A stretch of DNA of 64,000 bases from a virus, in the IMG/VR virus record IMGVR_UViG_3300037420_001954, positions 9,836-73,835 of that record; one strand, given 5' to 3'. A program made the translations under genes and the position numbers. Below the pieces are notes generated by a model. That model was not told the DNA's origin. It saw only the letters and a program-made list of their open reading frames with translations, and did not search any database. The first letter of the stretch is position 1. Every line of letters begins with the position of its first letter. Shown one piece after another: positions 9,569 through 62,160 of the stretch.

Positions 9569-10273
9569 TCACGCGAGCGCGCAAAGGACCTTGGACGAGG
9601 CCACCGCGACGAGGCCGGCAGGGCCCACGCACACGGCGTTCACGACGGGCGCTGCAATCGAGCCGAGGAGAACGGTCGAGCCGTCGACCTGAGCCTGGCC
9701 GGTGCCCACGAGCGAGCACTTGCCCGATTTATCGAGTGTGAGGCAGGAACCGGAGCCGCCGGCAAACGCCTTGAAGCCGTCGCCGTCGATAATGAAGCCG
9801 TACCCCTTGGAGTTTACGCAGCGAATCGTGTCGTTCTCTGCGTCCATTTGGAACAACATCCCATCGCCGTCTTCGGCATTGCCGGCGCGCGTGTAGATGT
9901 TGACGGAGCCATTCTTCTTGATGAGGACACGGCCTTGGGACTTGCCGTCCTCGCCACCCCCGAACATGCAGGTTTCGCCGTCCGCTAGCGCGCCGTAAAT
10001 GGCATTCGTTCGGTTGTCTTGCGACGCGAACGCGATCTCATAACGACCAATGCGAAGGACGAGCGCGCCCGCCGCCTCTTCCTTGTCCTTATTCGGTTTA
10101 GCCGGGCGGGACGCGAAACCGACCTGTTGCCACCACTCGACCTTGTCGGAATCCGTCTGCCCTTCGCCCGTAACGCTTCCGATCTTCGTTAGGATCTTCT
10201 TCGTCTTGTCCACGAGCTCGGTGCCGAGAACATGGACAATTTGGAACGAGTCAGGCAGGAAGGTGGCGGACAT
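9569..10273 (-). CDS. Baseplate spike (gpV/Mu gp45-like)
   Basis: EWWQQVGFASRP, GALADGETCMF and beta-helix-like repeats; follows the hub gene. Confidence 0.7.
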   Translation of the reverse strand: MSATFLPDSFQIVHVLGTELVDKTKKILTKIGSVTGEGQTDSDKVEWWQQVGFASRPAKPNKDKEEAAGALVLRIGRYEIAFASQDNRTNAIYGALADGETCMFGGGEDGKSQGRVLIKKNGSVNIYTRAGNAEDGDGMLFQMDAENDTIRCVNSKGYGFIIDGDGFKAFAGGSGSCLTLDKSGKCSLVGTGQAQVDGSTVLLGSIAAPVVNAVCVGPAGLVAVASSKVLCALA

Positions 10274-23337: not shown

Positions 23338-24000
23338 TCAAGCGCGCTTGATAAGGCCTTGGCGCTCCGCGTACTGCGTTGCCGCGTACGGGTTCACCTT
23401 CATCATCTCGACGAAAATGGCCTGCGGGTCCGGTGCGCTCCCGGTATTCCCTTGTTCTCTTGGTGCGCCCTGCGCGGGCAACGTGTTTTGGACCGCGGGC
23501 GCGGCCGGGGTCGTCGGCGTCACGATGGCGGCCGGCACGAGCTTCTTGACGGTATTGGCCGCCTTGATTTGCTTGGCCGGGTCGTCTCCTGCGAGATCGA
23601 GGACGGCATTGCGCTGTTCCTCAGTCAGGCCTTCGAGCGTCGCCTTCGCGACTTCCGCCATCGTGCTGAACAACTCAGCATTCTTCGCCTGCGCGGCCTC
23701 GAGCGCGGACTTCGCACTTGCGGCCTTTTCTGCATCCGTCTTCTGGGCTTCCGCCGCGGCCTTGGCCGTTTCGATTGCCTGTTTGACGGCTTCCAGCGAA
23801 TCCACACCAAGGTCCTTCATCCAAGCAGTGCGCTCTCGCTCGAGGCGCGCGTTGAATGCCGACTTCGGCATCGAAATGCTGTCGTCGTCTCCCGCCTTGC
23901 TCTTGTTCGGAGCGGGCACGGGCTGGTTGGTGGACGGATCGATGGTGATGGTGGACTCGGACACGACAGTGCCCGCGCCACCGTTTTCGGCAGTGCTCAT
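23338..24000 (-). CDS. Capsid scaffolding protein
   Basis: AFNARLERER...LGVDSLEAVK coiled-coil pattern; precedes the capsid gene. Confidence 0.8.
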   Translation of the reverse strand: MSTAENGGAGTVVSESTITIDPSTNQPVPAPNKSKAGDDDSISMPKSAFNARLERERTAWMKDLGVDSLEAVKQAIETAKAAAEAQKTDAEKAASAKSALEAAQAKNAELFSTMAEVAKATLEGLTEEQRNAVLDLAGDDPAKQIKAANTVKKLVPAAIVTPTTPAAPAVQNTLPAQGAPREQGNTGSAPDPQAIFVEMMKVNPYAATQYAERQGLIKRA

Positions 24001-24106
24001 GTATTGGTCTTTCCTCGCCCGTTACCGTCGGCGTCACGTAAGTTGGAAGGACCGCGAGCGCGGCCTTTCGGTCTGGTCTCTAGTTTGGAAACTAGATGCC
24101 AGTCAG

Positions 24107-24179
24107 TTGCGTGAGGCCAGAATCGAACTGGCTGTCTCTTGGTTATGAGCCAAGCGGGTTTCCGGTACCCTACTCCGCA
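24107..24179 (-). tRNA. tRNA-Met(CAT), initiator-like, acceptor stem with one bulged base
   Basis: Anticodon arm CTTGG-CTCATAA-CCAAG; T arm GCCAG-TTCGATT-CTGGC; acceptor TGCGGAG/CTC(A)CGCA; no encoded CCA. Confidence 0.65.
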
Positions 24180-24212
24180 ATAGGCCCGTGATTAGAGTCG
24201 CGGCCGACTTTG

Positions 24213-24285
24213 CTGCCCAACCAGGGTTCGAACCTGGATAATCCTGATTAACAGTCAGGCGCTCTACCGATTGAGCTATCGAGCA
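24213..24285 (-). tRNA. tRNA-Asn(GTT)
   Basis: Full cloverleaf: GCTC/GAGC D arm, CCTGA-CTGTTAA-TCAGG, CCAGG-TTCGAAC-CCTGG, G73. Confidence 0.9.
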
Positions 24286-24360
24286 ATACGTACGCGTGCC
24301 GCCGGTCGTCATCCGTGCACTTTCACGCGTAAGGGCCGGGCCAACAGGCCCGGCGCTAAT

Positions 24361-51138: not shown

Positions 51139-51374
51139 GTCGAATCTACTGTGTTTTCAAGGAAGGCATCTACAACCAAGGTTTCTACGGCACGTTCGAC
51201 ACGCAAGAGAAGGCAATCGAACAGGCCGACAAAATCGCCGCGGAGGATCGAGACGACTACCACAGATATGAGGTCGTCTCTTTCGGGCTGAACGACCCCG
51301 ACAGCTTTGGTGACTGGCACTACGAGGTCAGGCGATCTGAGGCGCTGTCCAAGATTGAAAGAGGCGGCGCGTGA
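51135..51374 (+). CDS. Hypothetical protein
   Basis: GTGA coupling; 79 aa. Confidence 0.6.
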   Translation: MSRIYCVFKEGIYNQGFYGTFDTQEKAIEQADKIAAEDRDDYHRYEVVSFGLNDPDSFGDWHYEVRRSEALSKIERGGA

Positions 51375-51547
51375 AAGAGCACGAAGACCAACTCACCGTG
51401 GGCATGCTCATCGACATGCTCAAGCAGTACCCCGAAGAAGCGGTCGTGTTTTTCTCGGACAGCCTCATGCAATGTGACACGCCTGTGTGCTCGGTGTACG
51501 CCGGGTTCGAGAACGAGGTCGTTATCTCGAACGAGGCGACCAATTAG
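51371..51547 (+). CDS. Hypothetical protein
   Basis: LTVGMLIDMLKQYPEEAVV; 58 aa. Confidence 0.6.
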   Translation: MKEHEDQLTVGMLIDMLKQYPEEAVVFFSDSLMQCDTPVCSVYAGFENEVVISNEATN

Positions 51548-51549
51548 TG

Positions 51550-51885
51550 CCACAAAGACTCTTGGTCAGCGGTGCGTTCGTGGCTAGCCCACGATCGAGG
51601 ACCATCGAAACGGGAATAGAGCATCTGCAAACCCGTTAGCGCGACGAGCCCGCGTAGATGACCCAACGTCAGGGGACTAGGCTCGCGACGAGACAGCCGG
51701 AGAGACGGCGCTAATCCAACAAGACTTTCACCGCCGGCCCGTCAGGGCTCAGGGACTCGTGCCCGGTGCGGTGTGACAGCCGGAAAGACGGCGCGCTTCC
51801 ACGCGGAGCCACCTGGGGCATTGACCTGGGCCGAAAGGAGCGTTTACGGGGATGAGCTGAGATGGAAGGACCCGCCCAGTTTCGC
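51550..51885 (+). ncRNA. Candidate structured non-coding RNA upstream of tRNA cluster
   Basis: No convincing ORF; duplicated GACAGCCGGA(G/A)AGACGGCGC hairpin (51692-51711 and 51775-51794); nested stems CGAGCC/GGCTCG and CACCGC/GCGGTG. Confidence 0.5.
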
Positions 51886-51887
51886 GA

Positions 51888-51967
51888 AGGGGGCAGTCCG
51901 CGAGCCGAAAGGCCGTACAGCGCCGGGTTGAAAGCCGGAGTACGTGGTTCGATTCCACGGTCCCCGA
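51888..51967 (+). tRNA. Atypical tRNA-Phe(GAA)-like gene
   Basis: GGGGGC/GTCCCC acceptor, CGTGG-TTCGATT-CCACG T arm, TT-GAA-AG loop; irregular anticodon stem and enlarged D region. Confidence 0.45.
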
Positions 51968-52000
51968 CAAACGATAGTACGAGCGCTCGTACTTCGTCAG

Positions 52001-52065
52001 TCCTAGGTCTTCTAAAGGCAGGATGCCGCGATTCGGCGACGTCGGTTCGAATCCGGCCCTAGGCA
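52001..52065 (+). tRNA. tRNA-like gene with 5-nt anticodon loop (no canonical anticodon)
   Basis: CCTAGG/CCTAGG acceptor, TTCT/AGGA D arm, GCCG-CGATT-CGGC, GTCGG-TTCGAAT-CCGGC. Confidence 0.55.
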
Positions 52066-52069
52066 ATTA

Positions 52070-52154
52070 GCCAGTCTGACGGAATAGCAGACGTAGCGGC
52101 CTTAGAAGCCGCCGGCCGATTGTGGTCGTGCAGGTGCAAGTCCTGCGACTGGCA
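52070..52154 (+). tRNA. tRNA-Leu(TAG)
   Basis: GCCAGTC/GACTGGC acceptor, GCGGC-CTTAGAA-GCCGC, long variable arm, GCAGG-TGCAAGT-CCTGC, A73. Confidence 0.92.
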
Positions 52155-52234
52155 CGAGGGTGTTGTCCAAGGTTCGAGTCCTTGGCGTCGGGCCGAAAGT
52201 CCGGCGTGGCGGAAGGGGATACGCGCACCCGTTA
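52155..52234 (+). ncRNA. Circularly permuted tRNA-like RNA (3' half precedes 5' half)
   Basis: GGGTG-TTGTC-CAAGG TTCGAGT CCTTG-GCGTCGGGC-CGAAA-GTCCGGCGT-GGCG GAAGGGGATA CGC-G-CACCC. Confidence 0.7.
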
Positions 52235-52328
52235 GGGCGAGAGCTTGAAGGAAGCGACCCGATTCCAAGTCGGGAGAGCGTGGAAGAAAAGCCCACGTGA
52301 CGAGGACGTTCGATTCGTCCCTGGCCCG
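52235..52328 (+). tRNA. tRNA-Trp(CCA)-like gene with long variable arm
   Basis: GGGCGAG/CTGGCCC (one mismatch), GCTT/AAGC D stem, CCCGA-TTCCAAG-TCGGG, CGTGG/CCACG variable arm, GGACG-TTCGATT-CGTCC. Confidence 0.65.
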
Positions 52329-52331
52329 CGA

Positions 52332-52649: not shown

Positions 52650-52840
52650 GCGACATGAAAATGGAAGAGATCACTGAAGTGACTATGACCTTGGTATTCG
52701 ACGTGAACCACAACACGTCAATTCGCGAACTCCAGGAGATCATGGAGACGTTCAAGAAAGCGGATCTCGACGTCGACTGCCAGTTCCGTACTGATGCGTG
52801 CTCTATCGAAGTATCTTCCGTACCGACTGAGGTGTGCTAG
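52646..52840 (+). CDS. Hypothetical acidic protein
   Basis: 64 aa, coupled. Confidence 0.6.
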   Translation: MSDMKMEEITEVTMTLVFDVNHNTSIRELQEIMETFKKADLDVDCQFRTDACSIEVSSVPTEVC

Positions 52841-54081
52841 TGACCGAGTTCCACGTCGAGGCCGTTCGCATCGGTGCAGTCTACAAGCACCCGAACGCCG
52901 ACTCGCTCTCCATCACGAACGTCTACGCGTCGCCGGACGGCTCGGGCGGGTATCCGGTCATCTTCAAGACCGGCGACTATGCGGAGGGGTCACTCGCGGT
53001 TTATGTGCCGGTCGATGCCGTCGTCCCCGAGACGCCCGAGTGGTCGTTCCTTTGGGGCAACGAGCAGAACCCGCCGCCACGTAAGCGCCGCATCAAGGCC
53101 AAGAAGCTTCGTGGCGTGTTCTCGATGGGCGTCCTGACCGCCGCGCCTGCCGGCGTGACCGAAGGCCAAGACGTCGCCGAGCTGCTCGGTATTACGCGCT
53201 ACGAGGACGAGGCCGAAGTCGCCGAGCGCAGCGCGGTGATCAAGCGCGGACGACAGCCGAAGCTCGGTTGGTGGGGCCGTCTCAAGCGGTCGGTGCTCAA
53301 TCTGCTCGGTCTTTACCGCGAGCCTGGCACGCCCCAGCACGGCCTCCCCGCGCCCAAGCTGAAGCACCTCCCAGGCTACTACGACATCGAGCCGTTCCGA
53401 AAGTACGCGGGCTCGTGGTTCGAGGACGGCGAAGAGATCGTCATCACGGAAAAGATCCACGGTCAGAACGCGTCGTTCGTGGTCGATTACGACGGCAAGT
53501 TCCACCTCAAGTCGCGTACCCGCTGGCGTGAGTTCACGCCTGACGAGCCGTCGAACGCGTGGGCGCGCGTCGCGGCGAACTACGGCCTGCCTACGAAGCT
53601 AGCGCCGTGGCCTGGGTACATCCTTTACGGCGAGGCGTACGGCAACTTCTCCGACTGCCCATACGGCGCCACGAACGAGGCCCCAGGCTTCGTCGCCTTC
53701 GACGTGTTCGACTCGAACAAGGGCCGTTGGCTGAGCTGGGACGAGTTCGTCGAGTTCTGCCGGATCACGCGCATCGACCACGTGCCGGTGCTCGCGAAGA
53801 CGACGTGGCTCGAGGCCGACGGGGCCGCGACCTACGCGCCGCTTGCGGAAGGCAAGACCACGCTCAACGACGCGGGCCACGTCCGCGAAGGATTCGTGAT
53901 CAAGCCGCGCTCGGGCCGATGCCTGCGATCGGGGCAACGCATCGTGCTCAAGATGCACGGCGAGGGATTCCTCACTCGAGACGAATCCAAGACCAAGGCG
54001 CCGAAGCCCCAAAAGGCGAAGGCGCCGCGGGTCGCGCCGCTGCCCGACCCGAACACGACCGAGTTCGCACTGGCGGCGTGA
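52834..54081 (+). CDS. ATP-dependent RNA ligase (Rnl2/DRB0094-like, N-terminal OB-fold)
   Basis: HPNADSL N-terminus; ITEKIHGQN (motif I), LYGEAYG, FVAFDV, REGFVIK, LKMHGEGFL. Confidence 0.92.
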   Translation: MLVTEFHVEAVRIGAVYKHPNADSLSITNVYASPDGSGGYPVIFKTGDYAEGSLAVYVPVDAVVPETPEWSFLWGNEQNPPPRKRRIKAKKLRGVFSMGVLTAAPAGVTEGQDVAELLGITRYEDEAEVAERSAVIKRGRQPKLGWWGRLKRSVLNLLGLYREPGTPQHGLPAPKLKHLPGYYDIEPFRKYAGSWFEDGEEIVITEKIHGQNASFVVDYDGKFHLKSRTRWREFTPDEPSNAWARVAANYGLPTKLAPWPGYILYGEAYGNFSDCPYGATNEAPGFVAFDVFDSNKGRWLSWDEFVEFCRITRIDHVPVLAKTTWLEADGAATYAPLAEGKTTLNDAGHVREGFVIKPRSGRCLRSGQRIVLKMHGEGFLTRDESKTKAPKPQKAKAPRVAPLPDPNTTEFALAA

Positions 54082-59805: not shown

Positions 59806-62160
59806 GTGCCCGTTACGGGTTGGGACACCGAGACCGATCGCTTCCGGCCCGGGCGCATGGCGCCGCCGTTGGTCGTCGTCACGTGGCATCACTCGACCGA
59901 AGCTAAGCCCGACATCGTCCATCACTCGGACCCGGCGTGCTTCCGCATGCTGCGCGAGTGGCACGAGGACGCGGCGGCAGGTAAGCGCACCCTGGTCGGG
60001 CAAAACATCGCGTTCGACGCGTGCGTGATCATCGAGCGCTACCCCGACCTGCGTGAGTGCGTCTTCGCGGCCTACGACGCGAACGGCGTCACCGACACGA
60101 TGATCCGGCAGTGGCTCATCGACAACGCGCAAGGCGGCTACCGCGGCTACATGGACGAGCGCGGTAAGTATCACCCGCGCAACTACGCGCTCGAGGACCT
60201 GTGCAAGCGACACCTCAACGTGCGTTTGCAGAAGGACGCATGGCGCACGAGCTACGGCCTCTTCCACGACTACGCGCTCGAGAAGTGGCCCGAACGCGCG
60301 GTAGAGGTCCAGCAGATGGCCGCCGTCGAGCGCGCCACCCTCGCCGAGAAGTACACGGCGCATATCTCCGTCCGTCCGGTAAAGAACCAAGACAAAGAGA
60401 CGATCAAGCGCTTGAAGGAGCGACTCGAGGCGCTCGACGAGATGCTGGCCGGTGTGCCCGAGCGCGCGACGCAGTATCCGCTCGACGACGCCACCGGCAC
60501 GCTGCGCGTGTTCGAGGCCCAGCAACCGTTCGACGTGTTGCTCAAGAATCAGTTCGCTCAGGCCCAGGCGTACTTCGCACTCAACCTCGGCTCGGTCTGG
60601 GGGCTGCGCACCGACGGCCCTGGCGTCGCGTTGCTCGAGTCGGCGATCCGCGACGACATCGAGGACATCCGCGAAGGCCTCGTCGAAGTCGGCCTCGTGC
60701 GCGAGAACGGCGTCAAGGACAAGAAGGCCGCCATCGAGCGCATGATCAAGACGTGCCGCGAGAACGGCTTGCAAGTCATCCGCACGGACGCGCACTTCGG
60801 TACCGACAAGAAGCCCCCCTGCCCGTCGCAGTGCTCGTGCGGGAAACCCGGATTCGGCAACGGCAAGTGCCGCGACATGGGCCGCAAGGCCGGGCACAAG
60901 GACATCTACGAGGACTACAACCACCCGCAGTTTTGCCGCGAGCACGTCGGCCTCGACAAGGACGCGTGTGAAGCGGTCGCCGAGTTCGATGACGTCTGGG
61001 AGGACTACTCGAACTACGTCACGTGGGGGAAAGTGCTCTCGAACGACGTGCAGATGTTGAAGGGGGCGACCGAGTACCCGGTCCACACGCGCTACGGCTT
61101 TGCCCAGACCGGCCGTACAACGAGCTCGCGTCCGCCGATACAGAACCAATCGAACCGAGAGGGCATTCGCGAGGCGTTCGTGGCTCGGCCCGGGTACGCG
61201 TTCATTCAGTGCGACTACCCGCAACTCGAGCTCTATACGCTCGCACAGTGTTGTGTGTCTTGGTTCGGGTACTCCAAGCTCGCCGAAGTTCTGCTCGCTG
61301 ACCAGGACCCGCACCTCATGGTGGCGGCGAAGATCCTGCGCATCGATTACTCGGTCGCGCACCAGGCGCTGTACGACTCAAGCCACCCGCTTCACGGCCA
61401 GGTGAAGAAGATTCGTAAGCAGGCGAAGCCGTTCAACTTCGGCAAGCCCGGCGGCATGGGCGTGAAGACACTGCTCAAGACCACGCGCAAGCAGATGGGC
61501 CGGAAGGCCTTCGCCAAGCTCGAACTAACCGAGGCCAAGGCCGTGACGCTGTCTCAGGACTGGGAGAGCACGTGGCCCGAGATGCGTCCATATTTCCGAC
61601 GCATCGAGGAGATGATCAACGACTCGCCGACGGGCCGCGTCACGGTAGAGACCCTCTTCACTGGCCGTATTCGTGGCAACTCGACGTACTGCGCCGCGCT
61701 CAACAACGGCTTCCAAGCTTTGGGGTCGGACTGCGCCAAATCCGGTGTCTGGGAGATCGCCAAGGCCTGCTACGTGCCGCGAAAAGACGGCACGTACTCG
61801 CCGCTCTACAACACGCGCGTCCCGATTTTCGTACACGACGAGAACATTGGCGAGTCGCCGTATGAGCCCGATGAGTTCGGTATCGACGAGCGCACGCACG
61901 CCGCCGCTTACGAGATCGGCTACCTGATGGTCGATGGCGCGAACAAGCACCTGCCCGATGTGCCGATCGCGCGCTCTCGCATGAAGCCGCAGATCATGCT
62001 GCGTTGGTACAAAGCAACCGAGCCGGTGTTCGCGACGCGCCCGAGTGAAGGCCCCAGCGCTAAGAAGTGGCTGGTCCCGTCGAAGGTCGTGAAGCAGCCC
62101 GACGGCGAGTACAAGTCGTCCTACGACGATAGCCGCGTGGTCTTGGCGGCCGCCGCGTAA
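59806..62160 (+). CDS. polA: Family A DNA polymerase with 3'-5' exonuclease
   Basis: WDTET, GQNIAFD, YPLDDA; GRTTSSRPPIQN, CDYPQLE, AKPFNFG, VHDE; start re-called at GTG 59806. Confidence 0.95.
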   Translation: MPVTGWDTETDRFRPGRMAPPLVVVTWHHSTEAKPDIVHHSDPACFRMLREWHEDAAAGKRTLVGQNIAFDACVIIERYPDLRECVFAAYDANGVTDTMIRQWLIDNAQGGYRGYMDERGKYHPRNYALEDLCKRHLNVRLQKDAWRTSYGLFHDYALEKWPERAVEVQQMAAVERATLAEKYTAHISVRPVKNQDKETIKRLKERLEALDEMLAGVPERATQYPLDDATGTLRVFEAQQPFDVLLKNQFAQAQAYFALNLGSVWGLRTDGPGVALLESAIRDDIEDIREGLVEVGLVRENGVKDKKAAIERMIKTCRENGLQVIRTDAHFGTDKKPPCPSQCSCGKPGFGNGKCRDMGRKAGHKDIYEDYNHPQFCREHVGLDKDACEAVAEFDDVWEDYSNYVTWGKVLSNDVQMLKGATEYPVHTRYGFAQTGRTTSSRPPIQNQSNREGIREAFVARPGYAFIQCDYPQLELYTLAQCCVSWFGYSKLAEVLLADQDPHLMVAAKILRIDYSVAHQALYDSSHPLHGQVKKIRKQAKPFNFGKPGGMGVKTLLKTTRKQMGRKAFAKLELTEAKAVTLSQDWESTWPEMRPYFRRIEEMINDSPTGRVTVETLFTGRIRGNSTYCAALNNGFQALGSDCAKSGVWEIAKACYVPRKDGTYSPLYNTRVPIFVHDENIGESPYEPDEFGIDERTHAAAYEIGYLMVDGANKHLPDVPIARSRMKPQIMLRWYKATEPVFATRPSEGPSAKKWLVPSKVVKQPDGEYKSSYDDSRVVLAAAA

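Follow-up and report, generated by a model that had tools for sequence, protein, structure and literature searches.

The analysed window is a 64,000-nt stretch of DNA (positions 9,836 to 73,835 of IMG/VR record IMGVR_UViG_3300037420_001954) from an 81.9-kb phage record that is estimated to be 80% complete and whose phage has been detected in soil and rhizosphere runs. Its run of rightward genes is interrupted by a 784-nt gap (51548-52331), which has small ORFs on either side, those upstream following a DNA methyltransferase gene and those downstream preceding an RNA ligase gene, and which houses the candidate RNA region (Table 1). Related phages have tRNA arrays of varying contents at the same place, also immediately 5′ of the RNA ligase gene. 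Unit 1 starts within about 10 nt of the stop codon of the 58-aa ORF and is therefore probably co-transcribed with it; no sigma70-like promoter was found near unit 1, and the first terminator-like site on the + strand of the window is at 61246.

Table 1 Features in and around the 784-nt gap (window coordinates; structures are predicted)
Feature	Position	Strand	Remarks
58-aa ORF	51371..51547	+	Directly upstream of unit 1; unrelated ORF in its place in L430
Unit 1	51556..51709	+	Conserved structured candidate small RNA of ~155 nt heading the tRNA array
5′ part of unit 1	51563..51637	+	Found in close relatives only; stem 51563-67/51600-04 with inner hairpin 51578-94, then hairpin 51609-37
Pseudoknot domain of unit 1	51645..51691	+	Outer helix 51645-50/51680-85; P1 51662-64/51672-74 (3 bp); 7-nt loop 51665-71; loop bases 51667-70 pair with 51687-90
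End-module copy 1	51692..51709	+	GACA + 3-bp stem + loop; G at R position
Unit 2	51729..51792	+	~65 nt; multibranch stem 51729-34/51768-73, then end-module copy 2
End-module copy 2	51775-51792	+	A at R position
Unit 3 or spacer	51797..51888	+	Weakly folded (z = +0.96); no homologue found
tRNA array	51889..52330	+	Contents differ between relatives
Phe-like gene	51889-51968	+	First member of tRNA array
Palindrome and cloverleaf-like unit		+	In tRNA array, between Phe-like gene and tRNA-Leu
tRNA-Leu(TAG)	52070-52155	+	Sole standard tRNA called in the cluster
T-arm fragment		+	3′ part of tRNA array
Long tRNA-like unit	52190-52330	+	3′ part of tRNA array, after the T-arm fragment
RNA ligase gene	52840..54081	+	PF09414, TIGR02306-type; downstream of array

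The array contains five T-arm-like hairpins against one callable tRNA, and its odd tRNA-like genes are conserved, because the Phe-like unit is identical at 53/54 positions in L429 and the last 140-nt unit at 87/109 in L430. A perfect palindrome (51978-51995) separates the Phe-like unit from the next cloverleaf and has a terminator-like score on the minus strand. Three similar GAAA-capped small hairpins (51829-51838, 51903-51912, and 52190-52202) lie in or before tRNA-like units, and one such hairpin is also present in L425. The TIGR02306-type ligase gene stands 3′ of the array here and in the related phages L123 and L125, and this placement suggests a role in tRNA repair. In L120, the closest ligase relative, an MT-A70 family methyltransferase gene immediately precedes the ligase gene (L120:2974-3699); in the close relative L425, the genes from the array to the end of the RNA ligase gene are apparently deleted, the start of the first ORF being fused to the ligase tail (L425:796-936).

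The original prediction proposed the stretch from 51550 to 51885 as a candidate large structured RNA with internal hairpin modules. Its account of the letters was partly borne out: the region runs directly into the tRNA-like run, the + strand has no ATG-started ORF of more than 20 codons, and no reading frame is kept across relatives, a conserved ORF having been named as evidence against an RNA. The two repeats are real as well, each an exact copy of the motif (2 matches against 0.27 expected with up to three mismatches allowed; 3/100 shuffles reach that number), and the GNRA-like loop is found as GARA within their loop. A single, unusually stable RNA of about 335 nt was not confirmed, since its folding energy (343 nt, MFE z = +1.22) was equalled by 87 of 100 shuffles; unit by unit, z ranged from -0.5 to +1.0, and single-sequence folding energy was set aside as uninformative here. 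The conserved RNA is about 155 nt long, not 335, because relatives keep only 51556-51709 and units 2 and 3 are unmatched. Judged by this comparison, the 335-nt stretch is a mosaic of two or three separable units heading the tRNA array, and each hairpin, previously taken for an internal domain, is the 3′-terminal module of a separate small unit. What stands of the earlier interpretation is a conserved structured non-coding RNA linked to a tRNA array and outside Rfam, no family there having matched at E up to 10; its size and class do not.

Unit 1 is identical at 157/161 positions in L425 and at 141/155 (91%) in L430, where the ORF upstream is unrelated and the ORF downstream 71% identical. Six pairs of the 5′ stems are changed on both sides between unit 1 and L430, a count that comes from three sequences, most of the inner hairpin having been replaced. 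In run X7, contigs of related strains retain 51558-51710 and then jump to tRNA-Leu, and in other X7 contigs the whole stretch is replaced but the 21-nt module is retained; the boundaries of unit 1 are the same in contigs of runs X7 and X23. In L425, tRNA-Ser begins 5 nt after the module of unit 1, and cassette swaps among relatives fall exactly after the module. IMG/VR yielded exact relatives of neither unit 1 nor unit 2, the body of unit 2 was found nowhere else and is absent from the relatives searched, and unit 3 is absent from five related loci and may be the leader of the Phe-like gene. A 202-nt contig from the X23 RNA library (over 51558-51693, depth 3.2) was not accepted as evidence of transcription, because the library may contain DNA. 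A long-range helix between 51669-79 and 52352-62 (an 11-bp complement) was also rejected: it overlaps codons of the ORF that follows, and in L430 it is disrupted without compensation.

The outer helix around a pseudoknot of the unit 1 type is fully exchanged in L401, L380, and L436. In five aligned sequences, 8/17 pairs change on both sides, which 0/500 shuffles reach, although the set is small and the structure was derived from the same five sequences. A tandem G.A in this domain would make a kink-turn-like element possible. Covariation, which had been proposed as a check on the whole stretch, is thus found for the module hairpin (see below), the pseudoknot, and unit 1, and the 335-nt whole is not conserved as a unit.

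The end-module common to the 3′ ends of units 1 and 2 consists of GACA, a stem of 3-4 bp, and the loop GGARAGAC, and has only two copies in the 81.9-kb genome, both in the region studied. Elsewhere it is widespread. The exact 18-mer was found in at least 118 IMG/VR stretches, with unrelated flanks, and at least 120 times in GTDB genomes of many phyla, and the module itself, in phages and in genomes from many phyla, at no fewer than 370 distinct sites; these and the following counts are samples among the matches listed, with related loci included. When nothing but the loop, the linker, and the first base of the stem was prescribed in the search, all three free pairs were paired in 91/109 of the loop-only matches listed, compared with 24.6 +/- 3.7 for shuffled partners. 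Among the matches listed there were 20 different stems, and G-U outnumbered A-C by 11 to 2, which points to a module that acts as RNA on this strand; the matches listed also lie mostly outside long ORFs. The module is present in N4-like, phi29-like, and crAss-like phages, near the ends of transcription units in FoX1 and Alexa, unannotated between trnI and ban in P1, repeatedly in the pL leader of an N-less E. coli prophage (about 40 nt after the apparent pL), and once inside a lambdoid late operon. No phage protein family recurs beside it (at most 9/339 loci), so any partner would be host-made. Rfam searches of 20 module loci, the E. coli leader, and the related phages gave no family over the module, and string searches of the literature, with some supplementary alignments outside their reach, returned no description of the motif. 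To judge from these searches, the module class is uncatalogued; the analysis itself covered its cross-phylum range, its link to tRNA 5′ ends, and its covarying pseudoknot class.

Three other readings of the motif were discarded: a promoter with GACA as part of a -35 box (no -10 box follows), a CsrA site (there is no conserved A two bases before GGA), and a tRNA-like CCA end after the hairpin (12 against 6.7 expected, not clearly enriched). Individual loci show further arrangements. Five end-module copies, four of them at 78-nt spacing, occur in a 322-kb phage contig (L144:4129-4512), and two tandem complete pseudoknot-plus-module units lie between two genes in L119:11170-11311. A subfamily (L062, L282, L342, L361, and L376) has differing elements about 70 nt before the module, with a conserved purine word, a variable hairpin, and a stem with a T-loop-like cap replacing the pseudoknot. 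In the window itself, a second tRNA pair (Asn and Met; 23950-24290, minus strand) is followed by a hairpin-rich spacer that carries the 8-nt loop word of the module, stemless, 6 nt before a start codon.

Many sites with G at the R position have a pseudoknot upstream of the module, in which a hairpin loop of 7-8 nt, beginning AA or GA, pairs through four of its bases with the bases just 5′ of the linker. Among the matches listed, this form precedes 58/165 G-form modules (4.3 in shuffles) and just 6/103 A-form modules. With near-duplicates removed, the G-form count was 49/147, against 10.8 +/- 3.0 when the 3′ strands were swapped among loci; the set comprises 21 different helices with spacers of 4-72 nt. 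Similar hairpin-loop pairing before the linker is visible by eye in the P1 and E. coli copies. At sites that have no pseudoknot, a plain helix running up to the module shows only weak enrichment. The link between the loop letter and the presence of the pseudoknot suggests that the module loop docks on the pseudoknot domain.

The position of the module bears on its function. A tRNA is near the module at 43 of the at least 370 sites, most of which are without one, and among the matches listed the next tRNA begins 1-13 nt downstream in 27/43 cases and a preceding tRNA lies within 30 nt in just 2/34. Opposite-strand tRNAs were found at none of the at least 370 sites, and neighbouring module copies were on the same strand in 51 listed cases and on opposite strands in none. 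Because RNA bodies of varying sequence finish with the module immediately ahead of the following cassette, and do so at transcription-unit ends too, we tentatively favour the module's being a 3′-terminal handle that defines or protects small RNAs cut from tRNA precursors. The region would then open an array of cassettes, made up of small RNA and tRNA genes, within a long rightward operon, with unit 1 (~155 nt) and unit 2 (~65 nt) as separate RNAs. Host nucleases would cut the precursor, RNase P at the next tRNA and RNase E-type enzymes in G-poor linkers, so that every small RNA would finish at its 3′ end with the module, which would fold with the upstream helix and offer a handle to a conserved host factor setting and protecting that end. 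Against this, proximity to tRNAs may simply reflect tight packing; moreover, a stable hairpin of whatever sequence could stop 3′ exonucleases, and the invariance of GACA and the loop would make sense only with an additional partner. Comparison shows the structure, strand, and modularity of these RNAs, including the shared end-module and the put-like pseudoknot of unit 1; their transcription, processing, partner, and function we infer.

We rank the handle ahead of three other functions. A nascent pseudoknot-plus-hairpin might bind host RNA polymerase as the put antiterminators do and carry it across the ~780 nt of untranslated array and past later terminators. The pseudoknot enrichment is in line with this, as are the copies soon after pL in the N-less prophage and before ban in P1, and no NusG-family gene is present in this 80%-complete genome. 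The first half is also shared with putL and putR, namely a hairpin, a 7-nt loop starting AAC, a variable spacer, and a pairing strand ending CG, followed by one residue and a second helix (PMC9378689). Antitermination is nevertheless unlikely: the position of the essential put residue G35 is never G in the 58 listed sites, an 18-nt element replaces the 37-nt stem II, and about two-thirds of the G-type-loop sites and nearly all A-type-loop sites are without the pseudoknot. Several copies per leader, the copies that face convergent genes (57/245 among the matches listed), and the lambdoid late-operon copy fit it poorly as well. We give no more credence to a trans-acting decoy, in which released small RNAs would sponge a conserved host RNA-binding protein or a defence nuclease through the module, with several copies raising the dose. 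Multiple copies (45/435 loci among the matches listed), invariance across phyla, the placement among tRNA-like units beside an RNA ligase, and the identity of the 8-nt loop with the 23S rRNA stretch around A2058 (PMC12116650) would suit a decoy, but the match to rRNA extends over just 8 nt, which have another pairing there, no target was identified, and no Ro60/TROVE gene is present in the 80%-complete genome.

Still less probable is a new small self-cleaving ribozyme cutting the precursor near tRNA 5′ leaders, a mirror image of the theta ribozymes, which are a precedent adjoining phage tRNAs (PMC10879173). Host-independent invariant bases, the pseudoknot, a size of 50-75 nt, the phage tRNA context, and the want of a partner gene accord with catalysis, and one pseudoknot-plus-module copy lies 55 nt upstream of a pistol ribozyme (L029:2236-2374). 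No known ribozyme was matched at E up to 10, however, and the shared core is about 20 nt and frequently has no detectable pseudoknot. A broader proposal, that the module is the active core of uncatalogued cross-phylum phage RNA devices that work without a phage protein, would make it either a generalised put-type element acting on host RNA polymerase or a new self-cleaving ribozyme opening tRNA/small-RNA precursors; taken jointly, this is somewhat doubtful. One large GOLLD/ROOL-type RNA, or a fragment of one, is largely refuted and most improbable: the region adjoins phage tRNA genes as those RNAs do, but it has no Rfam match to them, either at the gathering cut-off or with E allowed to reach 10, is too short, is not conserved as a unit, and folds no better than shuffles.

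Phages and prophages of several phyla, among them Proteobacteria, Firmicutes, Bacteroidota, and Planctomycetota, retain a module of about 20 nt with an invariant loop, yet Rfam has no family for it and even the annotation of phage P1 passes it over. Its cross-phylum retention implies that it must act on a near-universal bacterial target, or alone. The pseudoknot form suggests that the put stem I fold, hitherto recognised in a handful of enterobacterial phages, is in wide use as a building block, and the copies in P1 and in E. coli prophages make the function experimentally accessible in laboratory strains.

Among known systems, Y RNA/Ro60 finds no counterpart here, there being no TROVE-domain gene in the 80%-complete record and no recurring neighbour protein. 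The Cyano-1/Yfr2 and Zeta-pan motifs share with the module a short purine-rich word, identical or similar, but pair it otherwise and occur in other hosts (the Zeta-pan model scored 17 bits against a cut-off of 56.7). GOLLD (RF02032) and ROOL (RF03087) are like unit 1 phage non-coding RNAs beside tRNA genes. Many GOLLD members exceed 800 nt (PMC12286853). Unit 1, in contrast, measures 155 nt rather than many hundreds, matches neither model, and is without a conserved large multi-domain fold. Theta ribozymes are HDV-like and occur on the 3′ side of the tRNA, whereas the module occurs on the 5′ side of tRNAs and lacks an HDV core, its cleavage being putative; no family model for the catalytic cores of theta/HDV, hammerhead, twister, pistol, or hatchet ribozymes matched over the module. 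What the two have in common is small size, a pseudoknot, and a link with phage tRNA genes (PMC10879173).

The closest comparison is with put, an RNA that is encoded close to an early promoter, ahead of terminators, and that suppresses pausing and termination by binding the beta′ zinc domain. The cryo-EM structure of HK022 put has a 5′ duplex and an A9-G35 pair, with G35 and A64 required; all changes of G35 abolish anti-pausing in vitro, and G35U keeps about 70% in vivo (PMC9378689). We read the stem I pairings reported there as a pseudoknot, which is our own interpretation, and on that reading the module class has the stem I layout, with a P1 of just 3 bp in unit 1. Both are phage-encoded and have no phage protein partner, and N-less pL leaders contain relatives of the module. 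At the G35 position, however, the module class has A in the window and U in L430 (U 38, A 16, and C 4 among the matches listed), and stem II with the internal loop carrying A64 is absent here, GACA and the 18-nt hairpin standing in its place. The model R1 used here found nothing in the HK022 locus, and the module class differs further in its spread over many phyla, its multiple copies, and its presence both in tRNA arrays and at transcription-unit ends. Because the G35 position is never G and the second domain is different, the module class is not a member of put, but by analogy it may work like put.
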